This document shows positions 7,274 to 28,391 of a stretch of DNA of 41,614 nucleotides, one piece after another; the first letter of the stretch is position 1, and every line of letters begins with the position of its first letter. The notes below the pieces were generated by a model. The model was given only the letters and a program-made list of their open reading frames with translations, was not told where the DNA came from and did not search any database. The translations under genes were made by a program, and so were the position numbers. Source of the stretch: Candidatus Bathyarchaeota archaeon (lineage in GTDB: Archaea > Thermoproteota > Bathyarchaeia > Bathyarchaeales > Bathycorpusculaceae); NCBI GenBank assembly GCA_963739305.1, contig CAVTZU010000022.1, positions 1 through 41,614 on the forward strand, read 5' to 3'.

Positions 7274-7274
7274 A

Positions 7275-10034: not shown

Positions 10035-10067
10035 ACAGCGTCCCCGTGGAAGCCAACCTCAACGAGC

Positions 10068-10489: not shown

Positions 10490-10681
10490 TCACTCATACC
10501 TGGTCAGATACAACGGCTTCCCAGCCTCCCTCTTCTTCAACTCCACAGAAGAATCACGCAACAACACCGCATCCGCATCCAACTCAGCACATCGAACAGC
10601 CGCACCGTTCGAACCGCCAGACCCTGACTCCTTAACCAAACGAGCTTTCTTCACCGAAACACACTCCAACACCAAACTCAA
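10490..10681 (-). CDS. Possible small hypothetical protein (63 aa)
   Basis: GAAAACGCTTATTTAG BRE/TATA-like sequence about 20 nt upstream of TTG (leaderless geometry). Confidence 0.4.
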   Translation of the reverse strand: MSLVLECVSVKKARLVKESGSGGSNGAAVRCAELDADAVLLRDSSVELKKREAGKPLYLTRYE

Positions 10682-11149
10682 CTAAAAGACAAACACAAGG
10701 CTAAATAAGCGTTTTCAAACAAGTGTACAACCCAAAAACACTCAGCCCCCTCCCTCTCCGAACCACAACGACTCTTCTCCCACTCACGACGAAACCGAAA
10801 CCCCGTTTCCCTCACTCTCATCTCCCACAAAAACGCACACATCATCAGCGTTCGGACACTCCAACGCAGGATGGAACAAACACCTCCGACTCTTACGCTT
10901 ACGCTCTCGCCCCATAACGATAATCACCCCGTAATGCTTCTTTCCCACAACGCACCGTCCGAACCGTAATATTCCAAAGCCTGCTCTACTGCTCCTCTAG
11001 AGCACACCGCATAAAAGAACCTTGCCTCCAACATTCCCAAACGGAACACACCAGATTCACAGCGGCCAAAGCAAGGCAATTTCCAATAGCGAAAGCTTTT
11101 ATTGCAGCACAAAACAAAGTTTGCCAATACCTCAAAAAGATGATGTGAA

Positions 11150-11899: not shown

Positions 11900-11901
11900 A
11901 C

Positions 11902-12966: not shown

Positions 12967-13078
12967 GTTTGATCGGCATCTTCGTTTTCTTAGCGGTGTC
13001 CTAGAACCTTAAAAAGTATTGCCCTTCATGAAGAACGCTAAAACAGCCGCAATCCTGAAATTCTCATCAATGGACACG

Positions 13079-13576
13079 TCAATTATCTGCTTTTTCAAGG
13101 TACCTAAACGAGAAGGGCTTGACAACCAACTCTGGACGGTTTAGGCTAAGAATAAAGCTCTGAACATCTTTCAAGTTAGGCTGCCAATCCTTCCTCATAG
13201 TGGTAATCAATCTTGAGAAGCTAGCGTAGTTCTTGTGCACGGAGACGATTATGCTGTTCATCCCTAACCCTTCACCATCAGATGCAAAAACAATATCCGC
13301 CTGCGCCTTTGCCCATTCGCGAGCCTTCTCAAGCAGTTCAGGCTTGGCTTCAGTGAAAGCAAGAAAAGTGAACGCAACAATCTCGTAACCCATCTTCGTG
13401 AGGTTAGGGATTATCGTGTACTCCTTCACGTACCCAGCCAATTCCAGATGAGTTCTCTTCCTCGTCACCGTCGGCTGCGAGACTCTCAAAACTTTAGCAA
13501 GCTCTCTGTCGCTTCTCCTTGATCCCCTTATCAATTCGCGCAAAAGATCCAACTTTTCTTTTTCTTTCTCACTCAT
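13079..13576 (-). CDS. Lrp/AsnC-family HTH transcriptional regulator
   Basis: RRSDRELAKVLRVSQPTVTRKR...GYVKEYTIIPNLTKMGY; start at MSEKEK. Confidence 0.88.
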   Translation of the reverse strand: MSEKEKEKLDLLRELIRGSRRSDRELAKVLRVSQPTVTRKRTHLELAGYVKEYTIIPNLTKMGYEIVAFTFLAFTEAKPELLEKAREWAKAQADIVFASDGEGLGMNSIIVSVHKNYASFSRLITTMRKDWQPNLKDVQSFILSLNRPELVVKPFSFRYLEKADN

Positions 13577-13819
13577 GAATAACGCCCGTATTATACACAA
13601 TTCAATTGATTTAATAATATTTGTGATTGAACACACTTCACCAGTTCTTCAAGACGACTCGTCAGAAACCACAGGAAGATAATCGTTGATTCGAGATGCA
13701 TTGATTTTTTCACAAAACTTCTGAGCGCAATATTAATAAATCTCTTGTAGATGATAGAATGATGCTACTTCCTAGTGAAGTAATTCTCTGACGCAATTGA
13801 GTTTTGGAGAAAAAACAGA

Positions 13820-14458
13820 ATGACCAACAACGATGTGATAAATCAATTAACATTGAAAGGAACAACGACCATAGGTCTTGTCTGCAAAGACGGAGTCATA
13901 CTGGCTTCTGACACCCGCGTCACGATGGGCTATTACGTAGCTCATAAACAAGGAAAAAAGGTCTATCAGATAGACGATCATTTAGCAATGACTATAGCCG
14001 GAAGCGTTGCTGACGCCCAGAAAGCCGTTGACATACTCATTACCAACGCAAAACTCTACAAGATCGAGCTTGGAAGGCCTCTGCCCGTGAGTTCGGCAGC
14101 GCGTTTGCTGGCCAACCTACTTTTTTCGGCAAGGTACGTTCCCTTGTTGGCACAAGTGCTCGTCGGAGGCGTCGATGGCACAGGTCCACATATATTCTCC
14201 ATAGATCCCTTCGGATCCCTCACTGAAGAAAAATTCGTCTCCACAGGCTCCGGCTCACCAATAGCATACGGCATATTGGAGGACAAGTTCAAGGAAGGCT
14301 CCCACATAAAGGAAATGTTGCCCGTAATAGTCAAGGCGGTAAATGCTGCCATGAAGCGCGACTCAGCCAGTGGAGACAGTTACAACGTCGCGGTCATAGA
14401 CGCAAAAGGCTACAGAGACATAGGGGAAAAGGAGAAGAAACAGCTCCTGGCAGACTGA
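13820..14458 (+). CDS. psmB: Proteasome beta subunit
   Basis: Propeptide ending KG|TTT; ASDTRVT; GSGSPIAYG; RDSASGD. Confidence 0.96.
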   Translation: MTNNDVINQLTLKGTTTIGLVCKDGVILASDTRVTMGYYVAHKQGKKVYQIDDHLAMTIAGSVADAQKAVDILITNAKLYKIELGRPLPVSSAARLLANLLFSARYVPLLAQVLVGGVDGTGPHIFSIDPFGSLTEEKFVSTGSGSPIAYGILEDKFKEGSHIKEMLPVIVKAVNAAMKRDSASGDSYNVAVIDAKGYRDIGEKEKKQLLAD

Positions 14459-14471
14459 GGATGTAAGAAGG

Positions 14472-16391
14472 GTGCACGGAAATTCTGACAAGGACAAGGT
14501 CGAAATCAGCCAGTACATTCTAGAGCATGTGCCCAAAGAGGCTGAGGTCACAAGGATCGAGTACGAGGGCTCAACGCTGGCCGTCTACACCAAAAAGCCA
14601 GAAATCTTGGTGGATCAAAGCAGCGTCGTCGCCAACATAGTCAACGTCATAAGGAAACGAATAGTCATCCGTTCCGACCCTTCGGTAAGGCTCCAAGAAG
14701 TGGAAGCTGAAAAGATTTCAAGAGACATCATACCCGCAGAAGCAGAGGTAACTGACATAAACTTCGACCCAAGCTTGGGCGAAATCATCATAGACGCTAA
14801 GAAGCCTGGCCTCGTCATTGGCAAGAACGGTACAGTTCTTCAAGAGATAATCAAGCGCACCAAATGGCGCCCACACGTCCTCAGAAGCCCACCTTTGAAG
14901 TCAAAAATAATCACTCACATGCGGCATTATCTTCATTCAGAAAGCAAAGAGAGAGAAAGAGTCCTGCGAACCATAGGAGAAAGAATCTTCAGACCAAAAG
15001 CCTTTGAAGTTGGCGACGTCAGGATCACGGCGCTCGGAGCCGCCCAAGAAGTCGGCAGATCCGCGTTCCTCCTCCAAACCCGTGAAAGCAACGTACTCCT
15101 GGACTGCGGAGTCAACCCAGGTTCATCCAGACCGTTTGAAGCATTCCCGAGACTTGACAACCCCGGCTTCGAACTCGAATCCCTAGACGCCGTGGTGATA
15201 AGCCACGCCCACCTTGATCACTGCGGTCTGGTTCCCTTCTTGTACAAATACGGCTACGACGGCCCAGTGTACTGCTCCGCTCCCACATCAAACATGATGA
15301 CGCTTCTCCAACTGGACTATCTGGACGTAGCAGGAAAGCAGGGTACAACCCCATTCTACGACCAAAAAGACGTTAGAGAATGCGTCTTGCACACTCTTCC
15401 CCTAAGATACGGAGTCGTGACGGACATTGCCCCAGACGTTAGGCTAACTCTGCACAACGCTGGCCACATACTCGGTTCTGCAATGGTTCACCTCCACGTA
15501 GGCGAAGGCCTCCACAACGTCGTCTACACCGGAGACTACAAATTCTCCAGAACGATGCTCCTTGAAGCCGCAGCCACAGAGTTCCCCAGAGTAGAAACCG
15601 TCATAACCGAGAGCACTTACGGCGGACCAGATGACATCATGCCCTCTCGAGTTGAAGCCGAGGAACGGTTGACAAGAATCGTAAACGAAACCCTGGAACG
15701 CAAAGGAAAAGTCTTGATACCCGTGCCGGCGGTCGGCAGAGCACAGGAAATAATGCTCATACTGGACGGTTACATGAAAAGAGGAATGATGAAAGAGGCT
15801 CCAGTGTTCATCGAAGGAATGATCTCAGAGGCAACCGCAATTCACACAGCATACCCTGAATACCTTGGAAGAGAAGTCAGAAACAGCATACTTCACGACG
15901 GAGTCAACCCCTTCCAATCCGACTACTTCACGATCGTGGAACATCCCAGCGTGCGACAGGAAATAATCGAAGGAGAACCATGCATCATAATGGCCACCTC
16001 AGGAATGCTTGAAGGCGGACCAGTCATCGAGTACTTCAAAAGTTTGGCGGACAACGAGAATAACACAATTGTTTTCGTCAGCTACCAAATCGAAGGCACG
16101 ATGGGCAGGAGAGTTCAGAAAGGTTTGAATGAAGTCACCGTTATGACTTCCGAAGGAAAAATGGACGTTGTGAGAGCCCGACTGCGTGTTGAATCAATAG
16201 AAGGCTTCTCTGGGCACTCTGACAGGCGGCAGATTTTCAACTACATCATGCATTTGAGACCGAAACCGGAGAGAGTGGTCGTGTGCCACGGCGAAAGAGC
16301 GAAGTGTCTCAGCATGGCCAATTTCATAGAAAGAAGATGTGAAATCAGATCATTCGCGCCAGCCTTGATGGAGACGTTCAGGCTGCTGTAG
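14472..16391 (+). CDS. fttA: aCPSF1/FttA beta-CASP ribonuclease with KH domains
   Basis: KH KPGLVIGKNG; MBL SHAHLDH; AGHILGSA; GFSGHSD; conserved adjacency to psmB. Confidence 0.96.
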   Translation: MHGNSDKDKVEISQYILEHVPKEAEVTRIEYEGSTLAVYTKKPEILVDQSSVVANIVNVIRKRIVIRSDPSVRLQEVEAEKISRDIIPAEAEVTDINFDPSLGEIIIDAKKPGLVIGKNGTVLQEIIKRTKWRPHVLRSPPLKSKIITHMRHYLHSESKERERVLRTIGERIFRPKAFEVGDVRITALGAAQEVGRSAFLLQTRESNVLLDCGVNPGSSRPFEAFPRLDNPGFELESLDAVVISHAHLDHCGLVPFLYKYGYDGPVYCSAPTSNMMTLLQLDYLDVAGKQGTTPFYDQKDVRECVLHTLPLRYGVVTDIAPDVRLTLHNAGHILGSAMVHLHVGEGLHNVVYTGDYKFSRTMLLEAAATEFPRVETVITESTYGGPDDIMPSRVEAEERLTRIVNETLERKGKVLIPVPAVGRAQEIMLILDGYMKRGMMKEAPVFIEGMISEATAIHTAYPEYLGREVRNSILHDGVNPFQSDYFTIVEHPSVRQEIIEGEPCIIMATSGMLEGGPVIEYFKSLADNENNTIVFVSYQIEGTMGRRVQKGLNEVTVMTSEGKMDVVRARLRVESIEGFSGHSDRRQIFNYIMHLRPKPERVVVCHGERAKCLSMANFIERRCEIRSFAPALMETFRLL

Positions 16392-16767
16392 GAATAGGCT
16401 CGTTCGAAACAGCTACTTTCTCTCGCCAGATTTTAACGCTTTGAGGACAAACAACTACCCGTTCTTCTCCCAGTCTCGCGATGTCCCCTCCAACGGCTTC
16501 GGCGAACTCGCACAACTCGTTGACAGCACGTTTGACATCTTCGATGCTCTTGTTTGCAAGAGGTGTTATTCTAAGAATCAGGATATTCCCTTCTTTAACT
16601 TCTGCCTTAATAGATTCCAAGTCTGAAAGGTCACGGAGAGGCATCGCTTTCAAATAGGTCTTGCCAGAACTACTTTTTGGCTCGGCTTCCTTCTGTTCCT
16701 TTTTTGATTTGCGCAGTATCCCAAGTCCTGGCAAACGTCTCTTCCCTTTCCCTCTCTTATTCTTCAT
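16378..16767 (-). CDS. sepF: Cell division protein SepF
   Basis: EVKEGNILIL...VKRAVNEL...GGDIARLGEERVVVCP. Confidence 0.85.
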   Translation of the reverse strand: MKNKRGKGKRRLPGLGILRKSKKEQKEAEPKSSSGKTYLKAMPLRDLSDLESIKAEVKEGNILILRITPLANKSIEDVKRAVNELCEFAEAVGGDIARLGEERVVVCPQSVKIWREKVAVSNEPIPTAA

Positions 16768-16842
16768 TTCGAGAGTTTAAGTTTTTCTTAACTTCAGGCC
16801 GAATTTCTAATGTATCTTGAAGTATTAAAACGTTCCATAGGC

Positions 16843-17382
16843 TCAATGCCCCAACCTCTTTTCTGGGATCTTGGAAGTCAACTCCTTCATAAGATTCCAA
16901 GTCTTGTCACCAACGTAGTAAAGATTCTTCACCAATATGCCCTGTTTTGTCCTTGTTGCCTCTTCAGAGCCATGAAGGATCTCGCCCAAAGCAAGTGGTT
17001 TTCCGTATTTTTCGTCAACGACGACAACAATGCTACCGCTTTCGAAGCGTCCTTCAATTCGCCTCACGCCAGGTGCCATTACGTTTGCGCCTTTGCAAAC
17101 ATAAGGAACGGCTCCCATATCGACGACCACTTTCGGAGCCAAGCGAAGATACTCATCGAACCTCAAAGTCGGATATATGCTCTCACCTGCCTTGACTAAT
17201 GACGGCTGCCCGTTGATGAGATAGATTTCGTCCGACTCCATCTGAAAGACCTCAACATCGAACCGATTCTTGAAGAACGCTGCCAAATCCACGCCGAGTT
17301 TCTCTGAAGCCTTTTGCAGCACAATTTTCGCTTCTTTCTTATTTAAGAAATGCTGTCGAGGTTTCTCGGGCATCAGGCCCAT
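16843..17382 (-). CDS. DUF1947/PUA-domain RNA-binding protein
   Basis: YPTL, VVVDMGAVPYVCKGANVMAPGV, NLYYVGDK. Confidence 0.9.
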   Translation of the reverse strand: MGLMPEKPRQHFLNKKEAKIVLQKASEKLGVDLAAFFKNRFDVEVFQMESDEIYLINGQPSLVKAGESIYPTLRFDEYLRLAPKVVVDMGAVPYVCKGANVMAPGVRRIEGRFESGSIVVVVDEKYGKPLALGEILHGSEEATRTKQGILVKNLYYVGDKTWNLMKELTSKIPEKRLGH

Positions 17383-17452
17383 CTCTTAGATAGGTTTAAA
17401 TGTTAAGCTTTAAGTATAAAAGGCATAACACTTTGGGTTCGAGAGTGAAAAG

Positions 17453-17680
17453 ATGAGCGAAATGACAACTGAGATCCTTGAGCAGAATCTTGGGAAAATA
17501 GTGCTGGTTAGACTGAAGGGCGGAAAGAGCTTACGCGGGAGACTCAAAGGCTTTGATCAACACCTGAATCTCGTTCTCGAAGAGACTGAAGACACCACAT
17601 CCTCAGAAAACGTCAGGAAACTGGGCGAAATAATCGTCCGAGGAGACAACGTCGTTCTGATTTCTCCGCCTCCTAGGTGA
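17453..17680 (+). CDS. Sm/LSm-like RNA-binding protein (SmAP1)
   Basis: GRLKGFDQHLNLVLE, IIVRGDNVVLISP; directly upstream of rpl37e. Confidence 0.95.
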   Translation: MSEMTTEILEQNLGKIVLVRLKGGKSLRGRLKGFDQHLNLVLEETEDTTSSENVRKLGEIIVRGDNVVLISPPPR

Positions 17681-17685
17681 CATCC

Positions 17686-17874
17686 TTGGGAAAGGGAACA
17701 CCCTCATTTGGCAAACGCCAAGGAAAAACGGTTCACATCAAATGCAGGAGATGCGGAAGAAGATCATACAACGTTACGAAGAAACGCTGTGCAGCCTGCG
17801 GTTACGGAGAAACACAAGTAATCAAAACGTATTCGTGGCGGACCAAAACTCTGCACAGGGAAAGAATGCGCTAG
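17686..17874 (+). CDS. rpl37e: 50S ribosomal protein L37e
   Basis: GKGTPSFGKR, HIKCRRCG, CAACGYG; TTG start after GGTGA. Confidence 0.95.
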   Translation: MGKGTPSFGKRQGKTVHIKCRRCGRRSYNVTKKRCAACGYGETQVIKTYSWRTKTLHRERMR

Positions 17875-17890
17875 AACTTCTGTTTTCCTT

Positions 17891-18502
17891 CTATTGCGAT
17901 GCCTGATAATATCCTTTGTCAACTTTTACAAATATCAGAGGACCTTTGCTCTGCGTGAGGTCTCTGGCCTTCCTCAATGCATTGGTGACGGCATTCAAAG
18001 TCTGTTCTTTCTCGTTCGCATAATTCCTCTTTTCGTCACCCAATTCCATCTTTAAGAGGTTTTCAGCCAGAATTGATGTTCCACAGATTTCTCCATTTCT
18101 AATAAGAGTTGAGATGACAATGTCCTCCATCTGGTTGCGATTGGAGAGTCTTGCCCAAATTGGCTCCGCATTGTTGAGGATTTTTGTAACGTTATTCCAT
18201 TTCTTGGAATTTTCGTTTCCTATCAGGAGCTTTACCCTTTCTCCCCACTTCCTAAGCCAGATTCCACTCCAGACGACCATGAATTCCTGCAGTTCCTCTG
18301 GATCCTCTTCGAAAAGCTTCTCCAGTCTGTCGACAACCTCGCATTGGGAAGCATCACTCCCTATTAAATTCCAGTGCACCCTCAAGAAGTTTGCCAAGTC
18401 TTGACAAGCGATTTGCAATACTTTGCGGTCCGCTCCCAGAACGTCGATCAGGGGGTTTTTCTCCATAAGTTTTTCAGACATCAACGTTTCTATGAAATTC
18501 AC
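17891..18502 (-). CDS. Hypothetical protein
   Basis: 203-aa open frame with normal composition; no family recognised. Confidence 0.7.
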   Translation of the reverse strand: MNFIETLMSEKLMEKNPLIDVLGADRKVLQIACQDLANFLRVHWNLIGSDASQCEVVDRLEKLFEEDPEELQEFMVVWSGIWLRKWGERVKLLIGNENSKKWNNVTKILNNAEPIWARLSNRNQMEDIVISTLIRNGEICGTSILAENLLKMELGDEKRNYANEKEQTLNAVTNALRKARDLTQSKGPLIFVKVDKGYYQASQ

Positions 18503-18647
18503 GGGTACTTCCTTCTCGAAGCCTTCTCCATCTAAGACTAGTCCTTTGAGCTTTTAATAAGCTTTATTCGTAGTGGCTTCTATAACTCTGTTCAGTAGTT
18601 TTCAGCAATATTCCTTTATAGAAATATCATAGGAGGAAATTCTGGCC

Positions 18648-19307
18648 CTATTTGATGAAAATTGGCAATTTCTTGATACTATCCAGAATCAGGTCTGGGT
18701 CTTCCTTCTGAAGTTCCTTCCGCGAGAAGATTCCCGACAAGACTGCAACCGTTTGAGTCCCCGCATTCTTTCCGGCTCTCACGTCGACGACAGAGTCTCC
18801 AACGACAACGCAAAAAGATGGCTTCAATCCAAGTCTTCTCGCGCACTCGATTATCGCTTCAGGTGAAGGTTTTGGATTGGTTGTGTCGACAGCTGTCACC
18901 ACAGCCCGAAAATAGTTCACCAAGCCGAACTTTTCGAGCTGAGCCTTGATTTCGTTCCCGGAGACTTGACGTCTAGTTGTCAGCGCAAGTTTTGCCTTCC
19001 TCGATAAGATCTCGAGCGCGACCTCGACCTCCAGAAAAGGCTTCGTTTTTGTACGTGTTGCGCGGTAGTAGGCATCCAGATAGATTTCACGAAACTCTTT
19101 CTCATCAATTCCTTCGACTAAGTCACTGAGAGGAATATTCAGTTCGAATCGCCGCGGAATCTCCCAAGCAGTTTTCGTACGAAACTTCTCTCTTCCAAAC
19201 GCTGAAAAGGCCGTTCTTGCCGCGTCTACGTAAGCTTGTCTTGAATCGACTATCGTTCCATCCAAGTCAAAAATGATTCCTTCTACGTCCAGTTTACAGC
19301 TTTCCAT
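18648..19307 (-). CDS. HAD-superfamily hydrolase (phosphoglycolate phosphatase-like)
   Basis: FDLDGT, KPSP, VGDSVVD. Confidence 0.92.
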   Translation of the reverse strand: MESCKLDVEGIIFDLDGTIVDSRQAYVDAARTAFSAFGREKFRTKTAWEIPRRFELNIPLSDLVEGIDEKEFREIYLDAYYRATRTKTKPFLEVEVALEILSRKAKLALTTRRQVSGNEIKAQLEKFGLVNYFRAVVTAVDTTNPKPSPEAIIECARRLGLKPSFCVVVGDSVVDVRAGKNAGTQTVAVLSGIFSRKELQKEDPDLILDSIKKLPIFIK

Positions 19308-19433
19308 TGCGTTTTCGATCCCGTCGATTGTTCCTCTGATCTTTTGTTCGATAGGTTTTTATTTGCCGACACTTGTCTAAGGTAAACACCTGATAAATCT
19401 GTTTAGGCGCAGTAGCTTAGGAATGAAGAGCCA

Positions 19434-19742
19434 ATGGTTAGAAAAGCAAGGATACGTTTGACGAGCACAGATTACTCGAAGCTTGAAGAAGTATGTGAAG
19501 AACTGAAAGTCATAGCTCAAAAAACAGGTGTAAAAATAAACGGACCAATTCCGTTGCCCACCAAAAGGTTGAAAATACCAGTTTTGAAGTCCCCCTGTGG
19601 TGAAGGAACATCAACTTGGGACAAATGGGAAATGCGAATTCACAAACGTTTGATCGATATCGATGCTGAAGAACGTGTCATGCGTCGAATAATGAGGATC
19701 CGTGTCCCTGAAGAAGTGCACGTGACGATAGAACTCCTGTAA
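19434..19742 (+). CDS. rpsJ: 30S ribosomal protein S10 (uS10)
   Basis: GPIPLPTK, KSPCGEG, WEMRIHKRLID. Confidence 0.97.
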   Translation: MVRKARIRLTSTDYSKLEEVCEELKVIAQKTGVKINGPIPLPTKRLKIPVLKSPCGEGTSTWDKWEMRIHKRLIDIDAEERVMRRIMRIRVPEEVHVTIELL

Positions 19743-19951
19743 ACAACTTAACTGACTTCGGTTTGAACAGACCTCGATAAATACAGTTTTTAGTTGATGA
19801 TCGAAGATGACGAGTCAGCATTCTGACAGAGTAGATCGATTGTCAATAAAGACATCGACCAAAAGGGATAATTAGAAACGCATTCTCAATAGTTTCAATG
19901 CGTACAGCATGATCTGAGAAACTTGTTGACCATTCCCGGTGTAGCCAATGT

Positions 19952-21363
19952 TTGCGACGTGGTGAGCATTTGACGAAGAGATTTGCAATATTGGTATTGA
20001 CCTTTCTAACATTATTTGGCCTCTCCTTTCAAATTAGGTGGAGCCCTTTTCAGGTGATTGCCTTAAATTCGTTTCCAGTTCACAATGTGAACACCGGACT
20101 TAACTACACCTCAGTCCAAAGCGCGATCGACGCCCCAGAAACTGTGGCTGGAAACACGATTCTGGTTGATTCGGGGAATTACTCTGAACATCTTGTGATT
20201 GGTAAATCTATTGCGCTGGTTGGAGCAGGGCGAAATACGACAACAATCGATGGAGGAGGAGGCGGAATTGTAATCCAAGTCACTGCTAGCAATGTTCTGA
20301 TAGAAGGGATTTGAAGTGAAGAATGGTCTACTCGGCATATTTCTAGATCACTCCAACAACTCGGCTATAATAGAAAATAGCGTGAACGGAGTGGTCAGCA
20401 ATTACGCTGTCTATGTCAGCTACTCTCATAACTGCACGATTGAACAAAACATAATTGGACCCAACTCTGCTTCGGGCGTTCTCGTCACGAATTCTGAAGG
20501 CTTCACGATCTCGAAGAACTATGCACATGATAACGGTGGGTATGGGTTGAATGCGAACGATTCGATGAACGGAATCCTTGAGTGGAACGATGCAATTGGC
20601 AACATGTATGATGGAATCGGATTGGGTAGCGGTTCCAGAAACTGCACGATTATGGGAAATAACGTGAGCGACAATCAGCTTTGGGGTATCTGGCTTGATT
20701 CGGATTCTGTTGACAACCTTATTTATGATAACAACATCATCGGGAACGGTGGGCTAGTTTCTGTCAATTTAGCCGAATCGCTGGGATAACGGTCTTGAAG
20801 GAAACTTTTGGAGCAACTATTCAGGGCCTGACTTGAACAGGGACGGCACAATCGATGAGCCACTTGTGATCAATGAACATAATATGGACAATCATGCTCT
20901 ATCCGGGGAGTTCTCGTCCTTTCAAGCTTACTCTAATCTACGCGTAAACGTCATATCGAACTCGTCGATAGCAAATCTTACGTACATTCAACCAAATGGC
21001 ACAATCATACTTGAGGCAAACAGCAGCGCAACGAATCAAGGCTCAGGCTTCTGCAGGATCAGCATTCCTCACGGGCTAATAATTGGACCTTACAACGTGA
21101 CGATAGACAATACCGCCCCTTCCTACATCAACGATTCGCTTTACGACGACGGTGACACCAGATGGATGTACTTCAACTATCCCAATTCTGGACGTGAAGT
21201 CTCGATTCAGGGAGTCGACAAGACCATTCCAGCCGTTTCTTTGTTCGCGCGCGCTCTGGTTCAATTGGCTGTGATAGTCATCGTAGTGGGTGTGGTTATC
21301 GCCGTTGCTCTCTTGGTCTATTTCAGGAAATCAAGGAACAAAACTCCGAAAGCTGGTCGCTGA
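19952..21363 (+). CDS. NosD/parallel beta-helix surface protein with C-terminal TM (split into 3 ORFs)
   Basis: VHNVNTGLNYTSVQSAID, GNYSEHL, PbH1-like repeats, RWDNGLEGNFWSNY across a frameshift, TM + basic tail. Confidence 0.75.
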
Positions 21364-21399
21364 GTCGAGGGTCACAAGTTTTGATTGCAAGGTTTTGAA

Positions 21400-22299
21400 A
21401 TGGAGACCAAAGCAAGAAGACATGCCCTGATGGAAGGAGTGACGGCAGGTATTCTGTTTGGAACGGCCGCAATTTTCGTCAGATATGCACACGGAATAGA
21501 TCCTTTTTCCATCGTGTTCTGGCGTTTGGCCATAGCTTTGATAACGTTAGGTACGATAACGATTCTTTTCTACAAAACTATTCAGCTTGATTTTATTAGA
21601 AAGAACGCAAAGAAACTGATGATTCTCAGCGTCTTCTTAGGATTGCACTTTGTTTTTTTCACGGTTTCCCTGAATGATACGACAATTCTGAATGCCACGG
21701 TCTTGGTCAACACTGTGCCCTTTTTCTCGCTTTTGATATCAAGTTTCGTTTTCAACTTGAAACCGTCCCGTTTTGGATTGGTTGGGCTTGCGATATCGTT
21801 CACCGGAATTTGTTTGATTGCCATTGGTGAGACGATGGCTTCGAAACCTATTGCTGGCGTTTCATCCAGCTTCAAAGGCGACCTGGAAGCGGTCACTGCA
21901 GCGCTGCTCTTGTCGCTTTACTTGAACTATGGTAGAGAAGTACGGAATAGAATGAACATTCTGTCGTTGATGGTGCCGATCTATGCTGCTGCTTTGGTGG
22001 TGGTTGGAATCGTTGGTCTTGCGTTAGGAAGCTCTGTCCTATCGTTGGCTCTTGTGCCTAGCTCAATTGTTCCTTTGATCGGTCTCGGTCTTCTTCCAAC
22101 TGCAATTGCACACACGCTGTATTTTTCCTCCTTGGCAAGTCTGAAATCATTCGAGACAGCCACGATGGCTCTTCTTGAACCAGTTGGCGCAACAATTCTC
22201 GGGATAGTCGCTTTTCTTGAGATTCCTGGTCCTATTTTTGCTCTGGGCGCAGTCTTCGTGTTGACCGGCATATTCTTCACTATCGTAAAAGGTAGTTAG
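21400..22299 (+). CDS. EamA/DMT-family transporter
   Basis: About 10 TM helices, duplicated halves, LLEPVGATILG. Confidence 0.9.
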   Translation: METKARRHALMEGVTAGILFGTAAIFVRYAHGIDPFSIVFWRLAIALITLGTITILFYKTIQLDFIRKNAKKLMILSVFLGLHFVFFTVSLNDTTILNATVLVNTVPFFSLLISSFVFNLKPSRFGLVGLAISFTGICLIAIGETMASKPIAGVSSSFKGDLEAVTAALLLSLYLNYGREVRNRMNILSLMVPIYAAALVVVGIVGLALGSSVLSLALVPSSIVPLIGLGLLPTAIAHTLYFSSLASLKSFETATMALLEPVGATILGIVAFLEIPGPIFALGAVFVLTGIFFTIVKGS

Positions 22300-22349
22300 A
22301 GCGGACTTGGCGTGCGGATCGGTTCTTCAAGAAGAAAACGGGAGCAGGT

Positions 22350-22631
22350 TTATTCTTCTTCCTGCACTTCCCTGCCTTTGATAACTAAAGAGCTTTCTTT
22401 GCCACCGATTACTCTGAAATATTCTTCCAGTTCTTTCTTGTGAAGGAACTTTCGAAGCAGAACGCGCAGATAGGTCCGTGACACTTTAACGTCATCAGTT
22501 TTGATCACTACGTCGTCTGTTCCTGTTTCAACTTTGGCGCCTGTTTTCTCTTTCAAGTAGGTCGCCAGATCTTTTACGACTTCGCTTCCTTCACTTTTCA
22601 GTTCCGAAATGTTTATTCTCGCTTCTTCCAT
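22350..22631 (-). CDS. rpl22e: Ribosomal protein eL22 (L22e)-like
   Basis: LATYLKEK...SRTYLRVLLRKFLHKKELEEYFRVI resembles the eL22 SKRYLKYLTKKYLKK..LRDWLRVV motif; acidic tail. Confidence 0.75.
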   Translation of the reverse strand: MEEARINISELKSEGSEVVKDLATYLKEKTGAKVETGTDDVVIKTDDVKVSRTYLRVLLRKFLHKKELEEYFRVIGGKESSLVIKGREVQEEE

Positions 22632-22640
22632 CTTCTCACC

Positions 22641-23300
22641 TCATTTTCTGACTATTATGACTCTAACCTGATCGCATGCGTCTTCACACGAGTCTGCAAT
22701 CATCTCGATTGCTTCAAAGAGTTGGCCTATCAAGACCGCAACCCCTGCCCTTGGCAAGTCTTCTTTTCCCAATAGTATTCTGGCTTTCTCGTGCAGGTCG
22801 TCGACTTTTTCTTCTTCACGTTCAACAGCATCTGCGGCTTCGAGTGCTCCTTCAGGTTTCACCATTATCATGTTCACGCATTTTTGCAGGGAAACGGCGC
22901 ATTTCTTTATGTTCAGTATCATTTCTATCAATTCGTCTCTAATCGAGGCTGGAACATCAACGATAGGTATTGCGCCTAGTATCCGCGTAGATTCTCTGCT
23001 CCAATCGGCTACCATGTCCACTCTCTTGACCAAGTTCATTAAGTCTTCTCTGTCAGTTGGGGAAAGCTCTCCGGTTGAGATTTCGTCCATTACGTTCCTT
23101 CGTAATCCATCGGCCTCTTTTTCGCTCCTCGCAACCATTTGGATACAACGCTGCATTTCTTTGATATCGCCTTTGATCGATGCCCGAATTGCTTTTTCTA
23201 GATCCTCAACTATGCCCGTCGTCAAGGCCAGATGGCGTTGAACACTCACTAAAGCTTTGGTTTCCCTGCGTTTTGCAAACCATTTTATCAATTCACTCAA
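22641..23300 (-). CDS. DUF47 / PhoU-like phosphate transport regulator
   Basis: EKEADGLRR...DREDLMNLVKRVDMVAD; EEKVDDL; IADSCEDACD. Confidence 0.88.
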   Translation of the reverse strand: MSELIKWFAKRRETKALVSVQRHLALTTGIVEDLEKAIRASIKGDIKEMQRCIQMVARSEKEADGLRRNVMDEISTGELSPTDREDLMNLVKRVDMVADWSRESTRILGAIPIVDVPASIRDELIEMILNIKKCAVSLQKCVNMIMVKPEGALEAADAVEREEEKVDDLHEKARILLGKEDLPRAGVAVLIGQLFEAIEMIADSCEDACDQVRVIIVRK

Positions 23301-24396
23301 CTGCTAATTCCTCCTTCAAACCCATCTCGGGATATGAGAACACGTGTGCCTTCTCTACGGAAAAACGAACGGAGACTCTCTCTCCGATTCGGACCCATTT
23401 TCCAGCCATCGAAGGTTTGACTACCACGATTCGGTCTTGATTTTCGAGCACGATCTCGTATCTTATGCTTGTCCCTTCGAAGGTAACTCTTTCCACCACG
23501 CCTGGAATAGAATTCTTGGCCTTGCTCGGCTTTTCTTCCAGAATGAAAGCTTCGGGCCTCACGGCAAGAACCACTTTTTCACCTTTTTTTGCAAAGTTGT
23601 TAATGGCTTGGACTCTTATTCCTCCTCGAAGCTCTATTAATGTTTCTTTATCATCTCTCTCCAGGATGTATCCCTCGAGGAAGTTTGACTCTCCGATGAA
23701 GTTGGCCACAAAAATGTTCTGAGGAGACATGTAGAGCTCACTTGGGTTTCCGACTTGTTTGATTTTGCCTTTCTTCATTACTGCTATCCTGTCGGAAATT
23801 GCCATGGCTTCGGATTGGTCATGCGTTACGTGTATGGCTGTCAATCCTAGGTCCTTCGTCATTCTTCTTATTTCGTATCTCAAGTCATTCCTGACCTTTG
23901 CGTCCAACTGTCCAAGCGGTTCGTCCAGGAGCAACAGTCGAGCCCCTGCTGCTAATGCTCTTGCAACGGCTATTCTCTGCATCATGCCGCCGCTCAGCTC
24001 GTTTGGAAAAGCATCAAGTCTTTCGTGAAGTCGAACCATCTCGAGAACTTCGTGTCCTATCGTGCCCGCTTTTTTCATGTCGAAACCCTTGACTCGGGGA
24101 CCGTAGATTACGTTGTTCCAAACGTCCATGTGTGGAAAAAGCGCGAAAGTTTGGAAGACGAATCCGATGTCTCGGTCTTCGGGGGGTACATCGTTTACTA
24201 GTTTGTCTCCGATGAAGATTCTTCCTTTATCTGGTTGAATCAGTCCTGCGATAAGTCTGAGCAAAGTTGTTTTGCCGCAGCCACTTGGGCCGAGGAGGGC
24301 GAAATACTCTTTGTCACAGATGTGGAGGCTCACGTCATCTACGGCGACGAGTTTGCCGAACCTCTTCGTGACTTTTTCTATTCGTACGTCAGGCAC
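23293..24396 (-). CDS. ABC importer ATP-binding subunit (PotA/FbpC type, TOBE domain)
   Basis: GPSGCGKTT, LSGGMMQR, LLLDEP, HVTHDQSEA. Confidence 0.93.
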   Translation of the reverse strand: MPDVRIEKVTKRFGKLVAVDDVSLHICDKEYFALLGPSGCGKTTLLRLIAGLIQPDKGRIFIGDKLVNDVPPEDRDIGFVFQTFALFPHMDVWNNVIYGPRVKGFDMKKAGTIGHEVLEMVRLHERLDAFPNELSGGMMQRIAVARALAAGARLLLLDEPLGQLDAKVRNDLRYEIRRMTKDLGLTAIHVTHDQSEAMAISDRIAVMKKGKIKQVGNPSELYMSPQNIFVANFIGESNFLEGYILERDDKETLIELRGGIRVQAINNFAKKGEKVVLAVRPEAFILEEKPSKAKNSIPGVVERVTFEGTSIRYEIVLENQDRIVVVKPSMAGKWVRIGERVSVRFSVEKAHVFSYPEMGLKEELAVE

Positions 24397-24468
24397 AGTT
24401 CAGCCTTCCTCCATCGCCGTTTGAATTTTCGAAAGTATTGATAGGGCGAACGTAGTTTATTAATCATG

Positions 24469-26127
24469 TTAGTATCTTCCTCTTCCCTTGACCACCAATC
24501 TTAACGCCAACAGTATCAAGAAGGAAAACAGTATTAGATAGCCGCTTCCCAAACCTGCCTCCAAAGGATGCGCAGTGACCCAATTAACGAGGACGACTGG
24601 CGCTGTCTTGAGCGTTGTGACAACAGCTACGGTCGCTCCTGTCTCGCTTACGCTTCTCGTGAACATCATTATTGCTCCCGAAAGTATAGAGTACTTTGTC
24701 AAAGGGAGAACTATTGTTCTGAAGACGGCAAGAGGTCTTGCTCCGAGAGTTCGCGATGCTTCTTCGAGGTCGAGACCGATTCTTTCGACCGCAGCGGACA
24801 TTGATCTGACAAAGTATGGATAGGTTATTGCGACGTGAGCAAAGATCAGGAGCAGTATTTCTGGAATGAAGGTGAAATTGGTTTTCCAGAAGATCCCCAG
24901 TGAAATGCCTAGAGCAATCGATGGGACTACAAGAGGTATATTGACAAGCACGTCTAAGATTGTAGAAACGAACCCGCCGAACTTCTTTCTCGCAATGAGG
25001 ATTGCCATTGGCAAGCCTATAATGATGTTGATGACTGTGACGATTCCGCCGAGGAGATATGACAACACGAGACTCTGCCAATATTGCCCCCAGATTCCTG
25101 ATCCTGCTAAAGATTGTGAGAAAGTTCCTGTGAATACAGCTTGAAAGGCTGGGAGCGCCACGAATAGGGACGGAACGAGGATGATTGCAAAGAAAATGAT
25201 CAATGTTGCAGTGTCCCTTGAAGCCGCCGCTTTCGAATAGCTGATGCGTCGTTCGAGCATCGGCCAAACTCTCTTCATGGGTAGTCTTAGCCGTGGTCCA
25301 ACTATGCGTATAACGAAGAAAATCGCGACCGCGACGACGATGAGAATGAAGCTTGCAAACACGGTCGAGCCTTCGTAGAGAGTTTGACTTACGGTTCCGG
25401 CTGCGTAAGCTTTATTCATGTTCTGTATGAAGACGGGTCCGTTTTCGAAGAATCCCGCAACTATGAACGTGGCTCCCGTTTCGGATATTGATCTTGCGAA
25501 CGCAAGAATGAAGCTGGCGATCAGGGAGGGTTTTATGATGGACAAAGTCACTGTTCTGGATGCGGTGAATGGAGGTGCCCCTAGAGTTCGTGACGCGTTT
25601 TCGTATTCTCTCTTGTAATCCAGCAGGGCACCTACGACTACTCTGACGACAACGGGAAAAGAGAAAGCGAAGTGCAAGAGTATGACAAGCAGCCATCCTG
25701 GAGAAATCAGGGTTCCTCCAAACAGCGCGGATATGCCTTGGGGTTTGTTCCAGAAAAGCAACAATGAGTAGCCGAGAACTGCTGTTGGCACGATGAATGG
25801 AATGTCAGACAGGGTGTCTAGGACGTTGATCCAAGTGGATTTCTTGCGGGCGATGAGCCATGCCATTGGTACGCCGACGACAAGATCGATGGCTGAAACG
25901 AGGAGTGCTATGGTGAAAGAGTTCTGGACGGCTGTGAGTGCTCGGGAGACGTAGCTTGGCTGGTTTAGGAATTGTTGCATTGTGTTCCATTGTGTTGCTA
26001 TTCCAAGCAGGGGCGGAAGGATTATGAATGCGAGGAATACGATTACGGCGATCAAGTAGACCGAGTATTTGATGCTTTTCCGTGAAGAAAGTCTGTAAAG
26101 TGCTGAGACAAACTTGGATTCCGGCAA
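24469..26127 (-). CDS. ABC importer permease with two fused BPD_transp_1 domains (FbpB/ThiP type)
   Basis: Two EAA-like loops (ENASRTLGA, EEASRTLGA); two SETGAT motifs. Confidence 0.9.
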   Translation of the reverse strand: MPESKFVSALYRLSSRKSIKYSVYLIAVIVFLAFIILPPLLGIATQWNTMQQFLNQPSYVSRALTAVQNSFTIALLVSAIDLVVGVPMAWLIARKKSTWINVLDTLSDIPFIVPTAVLGYSLLLFWNKPQGISALFGGTLISPGWLLVILLHFAFSFPVVVRVVVGALLDYKREYENASRTLGAPPFTASRTVTLSIIKPSLIASFILAFARSISETGATFIVAGFFENGPVFIQNMNKAYAAGTVSQTLYEGSTVFASFILIVVAVAIFFVIRIVGPRLRLPMKRVWPMLERRISYSKAAASRDTATLIIFFAIILVPSLFVALPAFQAVFTGTFSQSLAGSGIWGQYWQSLVLSYLLGGIVTVINIIIGLPMAILIARKKFGGFVSTILDVLVNIPLVVPSIALGISLGIFWKTNFTFIPEILLLIFAHVAITYPYFVRSMSAAVERIGLDLEEASRTLGARPLAVFRTIVLPLTKYSILSGAIMMFTRSVSETGATVAVVTTLKTAPVVLVNWVTAHPLEAGLGSGYLILFSFLILLALRLVVKGRGRY

Positions 26128-26234
26128 AGCAACTCCTTTCTTAGGTCCCTCTCGCTACGTTTGCGGTCTTTGTAGCTGAACGTAGCTTTCCTTTTTTCAC
26201 TTGTGGTTTCGGTTCATAAGTTTTCCGCATTGGA

Positions 26235-26304
26235 ATCTGTCAGTTCGCCCGTCGAGTCATGTCATCGCTCACGCTCTATTGACTCTCTGTGTCATCATCC
26301 AGAC
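26235..26304 (-). ncRNA. Box C/D methylation-guide sRNA
   Basis: Minus strand: TCTG-g-ATGATGA (C) cacagagagtcaa TAGA (D') gc-gtga-gc GATGA (C') catgactcgacgggcgaa CTGA (D) CAGA terminal stem; CAAAAGCCTTAAG BRE/TATA about 25 nt upstream. Confidence 0.82.
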
Positions 26305-26432
26305 TGGACTGAGGGTCAGAGTGGACTTAAGGCTTTTGCGCCTTGAGGCTTTTGAAATAGAAAACCTGCGAGTTGCTTCGGTGTGAAGTCTTAATATCTT
26401 GTTTTCTTCAATTTACTCGTGGGGTTTGGCTG

Positions 26433-28214
26433 TTGAAGTACAGTGTCATTGCTGAAGCTTATGAGAAGATTGAAGCCACGACGAAGCGGTTGGAGATGAC
26501 TGATTTGCTGGTTGATCTGCTCAGGAACACTCCGAAGGACGTGATTGAAAAGGTTGCTTATTTGACGCAGGGTAAGTTGTACCCTGATTTTTTGGGTGTG
26601 GAGATTGGTGTGGCTGAGAAGCTTGCTTTGAAGGCTCTAGCCAGAGCGACGGGCAGCGGTCAGACGGTGCTGGAGGAGGATTTGAGGAAGAGTGGTGACA
26701 TCGGTGAGACGGGTCAGAAGTTTATTTCTAAGAAGAGGCAGGTTACGTTTTTCCAGGAAGTTCTGACTGTTGAGAAGGTGTATGAGACGCTTGACAAGGT
26801 TGCGAAGACTTCGGGGTCGGGTGCCGTTGATGCAAAGATGGCGTTGTTGTCGGGTTTGTTGGCGGCTGCGTCTCCGTTGGAAGCAAAGTATGTTTTGCGG
26901 ACGGTGACTGGGAATTTACGGCTGGGCATTGCGGACATGACTGTGTTGGACGCGTTGGCTTTGGCTTATGGCGGTGGCAAGGACGCGCGGGGATTCATTG
27001 AGAGGGCGTATAATATCTGTTGTGATCTTGGGAGGGTTGCGAGGGTTCTTGTTGAGGAGGGTCTTGATGGAATACGGCGGTTTGAGGTTTCGGTTGGTGA
27101 ACCTATTAGGCCAATGTTGGCTGAGCGGCTTTCTTCTCCTGAGGAGATTCTTGAGAAGCTTGGGGGTCGGTGTGTTGCTGAGTACAAGTACGATGGGGAG
27201 CGTCTTCAGGCTCACAAGCGTGGCGATGAGGTCACGTTGTTTAGTCGGCGCGTGGAGAATATTTCTGGTCAGTATCCTGATGCCGTGAAGCTGTTTCGAG
27301 ATTGTGTTGAGGCGAAGGAGGCTATTCTTGAGTGTGAGTGCGTGGCTGTCGATGTGGATACGGGTGAGATGCGTCCTTTTCAGGAGCTTATGCATCGGAG
27401 ACGGAAGCACGGGGTTGCGGAGGCTGTCGTGGATTATCCGGTTTCGTTGTTTGTGTTTGATGCGCTTTTCGTTGACGGGAAGGATTTGACTCTGGAGCCA
27501 TTTCCGGTTAGGAGACAGTGTCTTGAGAAGACGATAGAAGTGGGTGATCGTGTTAGGCTGGCGAAGAGTATTACGACGAGGGATGCTGGCGAGTTGGAGA
27601 AGTTTTTTTTGGAGGCGATTGAGGACGGGTGTGAGGGGTTGGTCTGTAAGTCGGTTGGGGAGGATTCGGTTTATCAGGCTGGGGCGAGGGGGTGGTTGTG
27701 GATTAAGTATAAGCGTGATTACAAGAGTGAGATGAAGGATACCGTTGATTTGGTTGTTGTGGGTGCTTTTCATGGGCGCGGCAAGCGCGCGGGGACTTAT
27801 GGTGCTTTGCTGTTAGCCGCGTACAATGCTGAGAGTGACACGTTTGAGACGGTTACGAAGTGTGGGACGGGCTTTACGGATGAGGATTTGGCGAAGTTGC
27901 CGAAGATGTTGGCGAAGCATGAGCTTAAGAAAAGGCCTTCGAGGGTTGACTCGGTTTTGGAGGCTGACGTGTGGTTTGAGCCTGCGGTTGTTCTTGAGGT
28001 TTTGGGAGCTGAGGTCACTTTGAGCCCGATTCACACGTGTGCTTTGGGTTCCGTGCGGAAGGGCAGTGGGTTGGCTATTCGTTTTCCAAGGTTTACGGGG
28101 AATTATCGGGTTGATAGGGCGCCGGAGGATGCGACGACTTCAGCTGAGATTCTGGAGATGTATCGGGGTCAGTTGAAGAAGATGAGTGAGGTTAAACCTG
28201 AAAGTGCTTCGTGA
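26433..28214 (+). CDS. lig: ATP-dependent DNA ligase
   Basis: EYKYDGER, EGLVCK, WIKYKRDY, IRFPRF; TTG start inferred. Confidence 0.97.
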   Translation: MKYSVIAEAYEKIEATTKRLEMTDLLVDLLRNTPKDVIEKVAYLTQGKLYPDFLGVEIGVAEKLALKALARATGSGQTVLEEDLRKSGDIGETGQKFISKKRQVTFFQEVLTVEKVYETLDKVAKTSGSGAVDAKMALLSGLLAAASPLEAKYVLRTVTGNLRLGIADMTVLDALALAYGGGKDARGFIERAYNICCDLGRVARVLVEEGLDGIRRFEVSVGEPIRPMLAERLSSPEEILEKLGGRCVAEYKYDGERLQAHKRGDEVTLFSRRVENISGQYPDAVKLFRDCVEAKEAILECECVAVDVDTGEMRPFQELMHRRRKHGVAEAVVDYPVSLFVFDALFVDGKDLTLEPFPVRRQCLEKTIEVGDRVRLAKSITTRDAGELEKFFLEAIEDGCEGLVCKSVGEDSVYQAGARGWLWIKYKRDYKSEMKDTVDLVVVGAFHGRGKRAGTYGALLLAAYNAESDTFETVTKCGTGFTDEDLAKLPKMLAKHELKKRPSRVDSVLEADVWFEPAVVLEVLGAEVTLSPIHTCALGSVRKGSGLAIRFPRFTGNYRVDRAPEDATTSAEILEMYRGQLKKMSEVKPESAS

Positions 28215-28218
28215 GTGA

Positions 28219-28296
28219 GGTCTGGGCTAGGGACTGGTCAACATGGTTTTTGAGTGTTTTCAGCTCTAAAACACCCTACCCCCCGGCCTTTTTTTC
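28219..28296 (-). repeat. G-tract dispersed element, copy 2 (inverted)
   Basis: Reverse complement GAAAAAAAGGCCGGGGGGTAGGGTGTTTTAGAGCTGAAAACACTCAAAAACCATGTTGACCAGTCCCTAGCCCAGACC. Confidence 0.9.
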
Positions 28297-28391
28297 TCAG
28301 AAGGAGCTGCTTTTGGGTTTTTCGGTAATCCTTTGGGCGGTGCTGGTGGTGGTTTCCGTGCAGTTTCCGATGTTGCTCCTGTGCTTTCGGT

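Follow-up and report, generated by a model that had tools for sequence, protein, structure and literature searches.

The stretch of DNA examined in this work (hereafter the window) comprises positions 1 to 41,614 of contig CAVTZU010000022.1 in assembly GCA_963739305.1 of a Candidatus Bathyarchaeota archaeon, and its genes include those for the termination factor FttA/aCPSF1, an ATP-dependent DNA ligase (lig) and FKBP26. Two copies of one repeat lie in it, mutually inverted: copy A on the plus strand and copy B on the minus strand. The segment that first drew attention, 28219-28296, is the conserved right half of copy B (- strand), and its counterpart in copy A is 9480-9557 (+). We consider it probable, with a good deal of doubt left, that these flagged 77 bp are the conserved half of a non-coding, non-autonomous dispersed repeat, similar to MITEs (transposable elements of the miniature inverted-repeat type) and repetitive extragenic palindromes (REPs), which belongs to one genus of peat and sediment Bathyarchaeia. 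The source genome (2.32 Mb, 36 contigs) is referred to as G000, the window being its contig C22, and the congeners as G001-G010, giving 11 genomes of the genus together with G000. The features of the window on which the argument depends are the following.

9400..9575, + strand: copy A, the full repeat unit, with homology to the 27 other copies in the genome; the same copy with its flanks is found in an independent metagenome contig (L092)
9403..9408, + strand: position of the left inverted repeat of copy A, flipped and degenerate (CATGTG, where CAACATG is usual), from alignments
9410..9479, + strand: C/A-rich variable spacer of copy A, conserved in length and not in sequence (alignment; variability at the three codon positions 0.34, 0.32, 0.34)
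9482..9503, + strand: core of copy A, consisting of A7, GGCC, G6 and TAGGG (repeat search, sequence)
9506..9529, + strand: A/T-rich hairpin of copy A in the T-loop form, with the octamer TGTTTTCA at 9514-9521 (sequence, loop classification)
9532..9539, + strand: right inverted repeat of copy A, CATGTTGA, followed by the tail at 9540-9575 (alignments)
9576..28214, no strand: segment S, ~21 genes from a 129-aa open reading frame (ORF) to lig, collinear inside with the congeners and inverted relative to both flanks (synteny comparisons)
28215..28380, - strand: copy B, the full unit in the orientation opposite to copy A (alignments, nhmmer)
28238..28245, - strand: right inverted repeat of copy B, reading TCAACATG on the + strand (sequence, alignment)
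28247..28271, - strand: hairpin of copy B, in the A-loop form when read in the orientation of the element, with its octamer at 28255-28262 (sequence, loop classification)
28274..28295, - strand: core of copy B, reading CCCTACCCCCCGGCC and then T7 on the + strand (sequence, repeat search)
28370..28376, - strand: left inverted repeat of copy B, degenerate, CAACATC in the orientation of the element (sequence, alignments)

Two inverted copies of one repeat unit

An earlier, sequence-only reading of the flagged segment had described two copies with shared strings in the window, and our repeat search bears this out: it returned an arm pair of 33 nt at 9480-9512 and 28265-28297 (100% complementary) and a second one of 26 nt at 9522-9547 and 28230-28255 (92% complementary). 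Compared with the whole 2.32-Mb genome by blastn-short, the 33-mer gives E = 2.9e-12, which excludes a chance occurrence. Both copies contain A7, GGCC, G6, TA and G3, together with CCATGTTGACCAG and CAGACC. The flipped loop also described in that reading is exact once both copies are oriented alike, the loop octamer being TGTTTTCA in copy A and its reverse complement TGAAAACA in copy B; as the copies lie on opposite strands, the plus strand of the window shows TGTTTTCA at both. Copy B begins one base past the stop codon of lig (TGA, 28212-28214).

An all-vs-all comparison of the flanks of the copies gives a unit of ~165-175 nt, of which the flagged segment is the conserved right half. The proposal of a ~77-bp element was thus right about two similar copies and too small in size, since homology sets in ~65 nt upstream of the first position of the seed model (~95 nt upstream of the A-run) and in certain subfamilies extends up to 380 nt. 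In order, the unit consists of the short inverted repeat TCAACATG, a ~75-nt C/A-rich spacer, the core, a weak A/T-rich hairpin, the partner repeat CATGTTGA and a tail of 30-150 nt, depending on the subfamily. The TCAACATG/CATGTTGA pair is conserved, yet changes within it are uncompensated, and the spacer keeps its length with an identity of only ~65-75% between copies, the core being far more conserved. Within the core the order is AAG, A7, four variable bases, G6 and TAGGG; the four bases are GGCC in 11 of the 28 copies of G000, GACC in 5, GGTA in 5 and other forms in the remainder, and the cores of the congeners carry two G-runs. The 32-nt core that had been called invariant is therefore identical between the window copies and variable across the family.

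A repeat family in one genus of Bathyarchaeia

An nhmmer search seeded with the two window copies found 28 copies on 15 contigs of G000, in agreement with a covariance model (R1) built from sequence alone for the 58 conserved nt. R1 gave 28 matches in G000, 23 in G003 and 41 in G004, partial matches only in G005 (14), G007 (6), G006 (4) and G001 (1), and none in G002, G008, G009 and G010. Both copies known from the window are thus members of a set of 28; the outcome that would have spoken against the sequence-only reading, two copies only and no conservation, is contradicted by these counts. In a family-wide sample of 61 genomes (60 genera), clear matches of the covariance model were confined to G000 and G003, three further genomes had one marginal match each (E = 3e-4 to 9e-4), and for 58 other genera the sample gave no copies. 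The blastn comparison of copy A with 41 relatives found G000 and G003 only and understates the spread, because it missed G004 with its 41 copies. Scans for the exact pattern found 6 loci in genome contigs, all of them in one other Bathyarchaeia metagenome-assembled genome, 69 loci in metagenome contigs, one of which (L061) is apparently unrelated, and 0 loci in viral contigs.

Among the papers listed by a literature search on MITEs and repeats of Bathyarchaeota, none describes such repeats. The main text of a prokaryote-wide census of MITEs (PMC11602168) does not contain 'Bathyarchae', while its supplementary sequence files could hold the family. The family is a real one of the MITE/REP-like kind, and it is new.

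According to longest-ORF calls, a single copy of the 28 is overlapped, by a called ORF of 120 aa, and the other 27 are outside ORFs. By the same calls, 10 copies stand between divergent genes, 9 between convergent genes and 9 between genes in tandem, the last group being mixed (3 vs 6), and the genes that the copies adjoin, in either orientation, are unrelated. None of the 52 ORFs neighbouring 26 copies matches a transposase or integrase family; they are unrelated housekeeping genes or genes of unknown function. A tract of (GC)3 or longer occurs within ~200 nt of 11 of the 28 copies and in 172 of 768 control spacers, a weak excess. A tRNA-Met gene (G000:C13:48001-48078; L132:3202-3279) stands ~60 nt upstream of one copy, C13:47807, with a GCGCGC tract and an extra TCAACATG between the two, and the same arrangement recurs in the metagenome locus L058.

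Filled and empty sites, and variation at orthologous sites

Evidence for insertion comes from copy C28:16871, whose neighbours are a gene for a CoA-transferase and, convergent with it, an HMGL-like gene. These two genes overlap by 8 nt (CTAAGTAG) in G001, G002 and G008, and ~148 nt of repeat separate them in G000, so that the comparison of filled and empty sites that had been proposed is available at this locus. To the left of the insert stands AACAAAG and to its right AACTAAC, where the ancestral site has AACTAAG once. Flanks are also collinear across C7:12234, C7:21569 and C23:91710. By these comparisons of gene order, some copies are plain insertions, the corresponding spacers of congeners being empty.

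Other spacers are occupied in more than one species. Copies in G004 occupy the same spacers as C7:21569 and C23:29124, in the same orientation and beside orthologous genes, and differ from those of G000 in core variant, in loop form and in a spacer that cannot be aligned. The G004-type core has two G-runs, A4 and TAGGTC, and the G000-type core A7, one G-run and TAGGGT; nearly all copies of G000 share one core variant, C23:91710 having a core of the G004 type. At one locus followed across metagenomes, loop forms and G-run structures differ on identical flanks (L053 and L106 vs L072). This is the pattern of concerted evolution, or else of repeated re-occupation of the same spacers, and either would explain why the 33-mer looks "invariant" within G000.

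Two further spacers deserve description. In the IleS spacer (G000:C33:3860-4260, compared with the end of C69 and the start of C53 in G003, two contigs that overlap by 55 nt) the ends are conserved and the interior is wholly different, the length being ~300 nt with the repeat in G000 and ~190 nt without it in G003; an orthologous copy was looked for at the G003 spacer and is absent, a different sequence standing there. In G001, the tail module is found alone at C1:997293-997437 (L168), with 91% identity over 147 nt to the tail of C7:12234, far above that of the neighbouring genes (~70-75%); it begins at the 8-mer CCATGTTAAC, has a second CCATGTTAAC ~95 nt further on, and ends at a GCGCGC tract.

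Two loop forms of the hairpin

The loop flip between copies A and B is real and recurrent. Counting loop orientations, as had been suggested, among 93 unique copies gave 63 T-loop forms, 22 A-loop forms and 8 copies unclassified by pattern, and both forms occur in both sequence clades (that is, with both core variants) and differ at orthologous loci, which disposes of a view of all copies as plain 3' transcript ends without loop variation. The stem common to both forms is TTTT(A)GA..TG / CA..TCAAAA, and the loops are AAAA and TTTT(T). In the clade with two G-runs, the A-loop form, read by eye, is GTTTTTCGC, TTGAAAAAC, GCGAAAAAC and makes a perfect 9-bp stem; its loop and right arm are, one base excepted, the reverse complement of the left arm and loop of the T-loop form (GTTTTTCGC T GTTTTTCAA). 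Copy C18:88932, an A-form stem with a T-rich loop, is intermediate.

The A-form has 81% stem pairing and the T-form 71%, and each form folds better on the strand in which its loop reads A-rich. Two-sided changes occur at three stem pairs in the A-loop form and at three in the T-loop form (GAG/CTC vs CGC/GCG; at pair 16-28, 21 sequences have A-U and 21 have G-C); they split largely by clade and so represent few events. The hairpin is a weak one: for the 51-nt hairpin region and for the 148-nt unit, as DNA and as RNA on both strands, the fold compared with dinucleotide shuffles gives z from -0.35 to +1.6. Extrusion in single-stranded DNA had been one inference from the flip; frequent extrusion is therefore not indicated.

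Replication template switching, as PMC8794818 describes it, leaves inverted loops combined with changes that perfect the stem, and the loop dimorphism described here fits this pattern. We read the flip as an old mutational dimorphism spread among copies and not as evidence of ongoing flip-flop. The assembled contigs of four DNA runs over 9000-28900, which are fragmented there, show no joint, bridge or loop variant at either window copy.

Inversion of the segment between copies A and B

Copies A and B mark both ends of the 18.7-kb segment S, which is reversed relative to four congeners. The arrangement around the two ends of S in the congeners is as follows.

G001: between the 9634 end of S and the right flank R (window from 30.4 kb on) there are ~0.6 kb; the lig end adjoins DNA homologous to contig C16 of G000 (its 23.3-32.5 kb)
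G002: the 9634 end lies ~1 kb from M55 (window 28392-29240), with R beyond; the lig end adjoins C16-homologous DNA (23.3-32.5 kb)
G008: the 9634 end lies ~0.6 kb from R
G005: the 9634 end lies near a relic copy, with C15-like DNA beyond; the lig end is followed by a homologue of the last left-flank gene (window 8941-9289) and then by the C16 homologue

The end of C16 overlaps the start of C22 (2474 nt at 99.15%), from which the order in G000 follows: the C16 block, ~37 kb, the left-flank gene, copy A, S (read from the 9634 end towards lig), the inverted copy B, M55 and R. Taken together with the orders in the congeners, this means that S is reversed between the same two flanks, with copies of the repeat in both junction spacers. 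The junction at copy A is present in an independent 5.5-kb metagenome contig (L092), and that at copy B is seen in the assembly alone; a mis-join at the copies is unlikely, because the identical stretch (33 nt) is short.

We compared 14 copy-bearing spacers with the congeners, 12 of which could be scored against G001, G002 or G008. Gene order is broken at eight of the 12 (A, B, C18:88932, C15:79247, C33:4095, C36:21835, C23:19656 and C23:29124) and collinear at four (C28:16871, C23:91710, C7:12234 and C7:21569); at C9:72984 and C18:109638 one flank has no homologues. Gene order between these species is often broken at other junctions in the same queries too, and we therefore claim an association with rearrangement for the window block only. 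The 9.4-kb block between the two copies of the C23 pair is collinear inside with G001, and both its flanks map elsewhere.

Thirteen pairs of copies are adjacent on the same contig (C7, C28, C23, C33, C36, C22 and C18), of which 7 are convergent, 1 divergent and 5 in tandem. The convergent pairs have a distance of 7.6-9.4 kb in five cases and of 18.7 and 20.6 kb in the other two, whereas a genome of 2.3 Mb with 28 copies would be expected to have a mean spacing of ~83 kb. Among metagenome contigs that contain two copies there are two further independent pairs in convergent orientation (of 6.7 and 12.8 kb) and one in tandem. Two explanations of these arrangements were rejected. That every convergent pair marks an inversion is contradicted by the C7 pair and C28:16871, which lie in collinear DNA, by the C33 flanks, which keep their orientation, and by the C18 arrangement, which G005 shares although it has no detectable copy there. 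Nor do the pairs delimit a family of 9-kb composite transposons, as tblastx finds no similarity among the seven bracketed segments.

Other features of the window and of the assembly

The ~37 kb between the C16 block and copy A (window 1-9400 and G000:C16:32500-61312) have no conserved counterpart in four congeners, the last gene excepted, and encode proteins with dockerin and Ig-like domains; the stretch looks like a variable island. A second, unrelated repeat family of 60 nt is present at window 2476-2535, 3860-3919 and 4512-4571, and window 3852-3907 matches many places in each of four congeners at 83-95%. The ends of the contig overlap with others (window 1-2473 with the end of C16 at 99.15%, 37482-41614 with the end of C27 at 97.0%), as do many other contig ends at 95-99%, which shows strain-level redundancy in the assembly and is consistent with its contamination figure of 7.8%. 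A 62-aa ORF at window 28211-28399 (+) overlaps copy B. The same frame has stops in several other copies, the ORF is open because that strand of the repeat is poor in A, and it is probably not a gene.

DISCUSSION

In this work we describe a family of short, intergenic repeats of Bathyarchaeia, two copies of which bound an inverted block of housekeeping genes. Of the explanations offered for the flagged segment by the sequence-only reading, a REP/MITE-like element gives the best fit, the family being dispersed, intergenic and non-coding. As in MITEs, the unit is short and lacks coding capacity, and its many copies are dispersed and mostly intergenic; unlike in MITEs, its inverted repeats are not terminal, and no insertion sequence or transposase whose ends match was found as its parent. 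By analogy, the family would work most like the bacterial intergenic mosaic repeats, such as the Correia and REP/BIME elements. Correia elements have long terminal inverted repeats (~26 bp) and a TA duplication, whereas the repeats here measure 8-9 nt and are not terminal; the archaeal host and the lack of sequence similarity are further differences. The likeness to the Correia elements (CREE/nemis) of Neisseria, as the relevant passages of PMC10969869 present them, lies in a gene-less unit of ~100-200 bp, in tens to hundreds of mostly intergenic copies and in the absence of a transposase of their own; the same passages credit Correia elements with promoter- and terminator-like signals, with an ability to invert and with shaping the genome differences between strains.

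With REP, BIME and REPIN elements the family has in common an intergenic location, imperfect hairpins, a mosaic and modular build and copies that are kept alike within a genome. It differs from the REP-RAYT system in having a unit four to five times the length of a REP and mostly non-palindromic, and in a genus whose 11 genomes yield no Y1/HUH transposase. The MITEs of Sulfolobus have terminal repeats in common with known insertion sequences of their own genome, whereas no parent element was found here. These SM1-SM4 elements, which PMC10969869 lists, are like our family archaeal, non-autonomous, multi-copy and intergenic.

The ends of integron attC sites follow the scheme RYYYAAC ... GTTRRRY, into which the outer repeats of some copies (ACTCAAC ... 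GTTGAGT) fit, and the length of the unit is near the upper length of attC sites; unlike attC sites, our repeats are single copies at least 7.6 kb apart that form no cassette arrays, the interior is not an imperfect palindrome, and there is no integrase nearby. Small hairpin inversions in chloroplast spacers are a comparable case for the flipped loop. In contrast to the template-switch cases, both forms persist here in a dispersed family, across species, and are exchanged among copies. The likeness itself, a loop replaced by its reverse complement with the stem kept or perfected, is that of the events in Monttinen and Loytynoja 2022 (PMC8794818), who count 69 loop-only inversions in ribosomal RNA and describe inverted loops of up to 7-8 nt.

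Several of our own results weigh against the interpretation as a MITE/REP-like repeat mobilised in trans and taking part in rearrangement. No mobilising enzyme was found in searches for Y1/HUH transposases, tyrosine recombinases and DDE transposases. PF01797 (Y1/HUH) has no match in any of the 11 genus genomes, by a search that scores in 6 of 14 control genomes, so that the linked HUH/TnpA-REP nuclease once envisaged is lacking. Tyrosine recombinases (PF00589) give 15 matches in G000 and 9-15 in most of G000-G009, which is many for archaea of 2.3 Mb, and they are equally common in congeners without the repeat. PF01609 (DDE_Tnp_1) has 2 matches in G000 and 0 in G003; the one clear DDE element, on C18, was considered as the parent element and rejected, being single-copy and having ends unrelated to the repeat, and no long repeat in G000 carries the unit. 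The possible 7-bp target duplication comes from one site, that of C28:16871 (the only one alignable at base level), with 1 and 1 mismatches, and this same copy has no left repeat and extends ~35 nt beyond CATGTTGA, which makes the 8-nt inverted repeats internal and not terminal. The context counts depend on longest-ORF calls and not on gene-finder output. The fold of hairpin and unit does not exceed that of shuffled sequences, the covariation of the stem amounts essentially to one clade-level event, and the conserved core may have an RNA role. As for rearrangement, 8 of 12 copies at breakpoints are not by themselves a proof of cause. Finally, near the 9634 end of the S homologue in G005 there is a relic (G005:C20:19574-19607, L169) in the orientation opposite to copy A, made up of the core and half the hairpin, without the A-run or the right repeat; it is at odds with a single simple crossover and suggests a more complicated history.

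Among other explanations, a small RNA gene or a cis-acting RNA or terminator module is unlikely in our judgement, though it retains some weight. On the strand that ends in T7, an RNA of ~85 nt would consist of the tail, the hairpin, the C-rich CCCUACCCCCC and an oligo-U stop of the archaeal type, and the core would be conserved for the function of the RNA or for stopping transcription from both sides. The T7 tract does follow the conserved half, T-runs are present on both strands of the unit, the stem keeps its pairing through two-sided changes in both loop forms, each of which folds better where the loop is A-rich, and the core surpasses the spacer in conservation. However, nothing in Rfam matches the window at gathering score, or the two copies at E up to 1, z is not below that of shuffles on either strand, the covariation is split by clade, and orthologous copies differ in core variant and loop form. 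Across 81 copies no AT-rich box is shared upstream of the left repeat, and no TATA-like box upstream in either direction. An oligo-T terminator downstream of a gene and in the orientation of that gene, as was proposed for lig, describes copy B, which lies directly 3' of lig; it does not describe the family, with 10 of 28 copies between divergent genes and neighbours in mixed orientation.

A target or junction module for site-specific recombination, with the 8-mers TCAACATG and CATGTTGA as crossover sites for tyrosine recombinases, has a small probability in our view. In such a scheme the modules (the upstream piece, the spacer with core and hairpin, and the tail) would be swapped or turned, and inverted pairs would bracket movable blocks. 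The modules are indeed reshuffled: in the alignments, both loop forms are paired with both tail starts (GACCAG and GAGTAG), and of 87 copies that could be classified, 9 have the left 8-mer flipped, CCATGTTGA instead of TCAACATG, copy A being one of them. The lone tail module of G001, which runs from an 8-mer and has a second CCATGTTAAC at its far end, points the same way, as do the 15 PF00589 matches of G000, the 7 convergent pairs among 13, five of them 7.6-9.4 kb apart, the C23 block with its collinear interior and displaced flanks, and the wholesale replacement of the IleS spacer between G000 and G003. Against it, congeners that lack the repeat have just as many recombinases (9-13 in G001, G002, G005 and G008), no recombinase adjoins any of 26 copies, other spacers show no clear enrichment of the 8-mer (31 occurrences vs 11 +/- 6.6, maximum 34, for permuted 8-mers), the C7 pair and C28:16871 lie in fully collinear DNA, and the bracketed blocks share no genes. 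A bolder version, which we regard as improbable speculation, has an undescribed recombinase recognise the G-run/TAGGG core together with the TCAACATG 8-mers; this would be a block-shuffling system specific to Bathyarchaeia, with the repeat as its functional component and no mere passive selfish element, that homogenises the copies, flips hairpin and left arm on purpose, and turns or moves blocks of 7-20 kb between convergent pairs. Such a system would explain the excess of convergent pairs at ~9 kb, the inversion in the window and the translocated C23 block.

Two more readings have very little probability. In one, the unit is a tiny gene, a leaderless ORF of 31 codons with the product MQIQ..TTAR..QEKKxGG, running from an ATG in the left repeat to a TAG in the core. 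The ORF has the same length in all copies in which it is intact, and in one subfamily of G000-type copies a promoter-like CGAAAGTCTATCTA lies ~25 nt upstream; but it is intact in just 16 of 93 unique copies and in 0 with a two-G-run core, a scarcity of T on the strand leaves every frame open, and the ratio of nonsynonymous to synonymous polymorphism (pN/pS) is 0.84 in its frame and 0.82-1.01 across all six, with the variability equal at the three codon positions. This reading is close to refuted, a hydrophobic ORF on the opposite strand was likewise rejected, and the unit does not look protein-coding. In the other, equally improbable, the G-rich core is a G-quadruplex or R-loop element like the mitochondrial conserved sequence block II (CSB II), or an origin-type box for protein binding. 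Direct repeats of TCAACAT stand upstream of some copies, and the two-G-run form (G5-6, A, G5-6, TAGGG, T-runs) bears what we take to be a likeness to CSB II. Nevertheless, the canonical G-quadruplex motif, four runs of at least 3 G with short loops, is found in neither form of the core: G6 and G3 are the only G-runs of at least 3 in copies of G000, and two-G-run copies have three such runs. The G-quadruplex suggested earlier for the G6-TA-G3 tract is thus not supported in its canonical form, and the 28 dispersed copies in both orientations also speak against this reading.

Returning to the MITE/REP-like repeat as the preferred interpretation, we propose that new copies would be made by an enzyme acting in trans, and that ectopic gene conversion between copies may keep those of one genome alike. 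Such conversion would account for a core that is near-identical within G000 and differs between species even at orthologous sites. The flipped loop may represent an old two-allele state of the hairpin, born by a template switch or fold-back during replication, whose alleles could then have spread from copy to copy through conversion. Inverted arrangements of the kind seen around S arise when inverted repeats cross over and also by intramolecular replicative transposition. Segment S may have been turned around by a crossover between two inverted copies; alternatively, an intramolecular replicative transposition could have created the second copy and the inversion together. In our reading, the family drives rearrangement.

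What does this family mean for the organisms that carry it? Worth recording is, above all, an inversion of housekeeping genes, DNA ligase and FttA among them, that is bounded by an inverted pair of copies; so are the genome-specific homogenisation at orthologous sites and a dimorphism of the hairpin loop preserved across species, which is a natural illustration of hairpin-loop inversion by template switching. For annotation, the repeat accounts for breaks between contigs and for spurious small ORFs, the one at 28211-28399 being an example. Bathyarchaeia are abundant and uncultured archaea in which genome rearrangement is little known, and the family provides a concrete, datable example of it.

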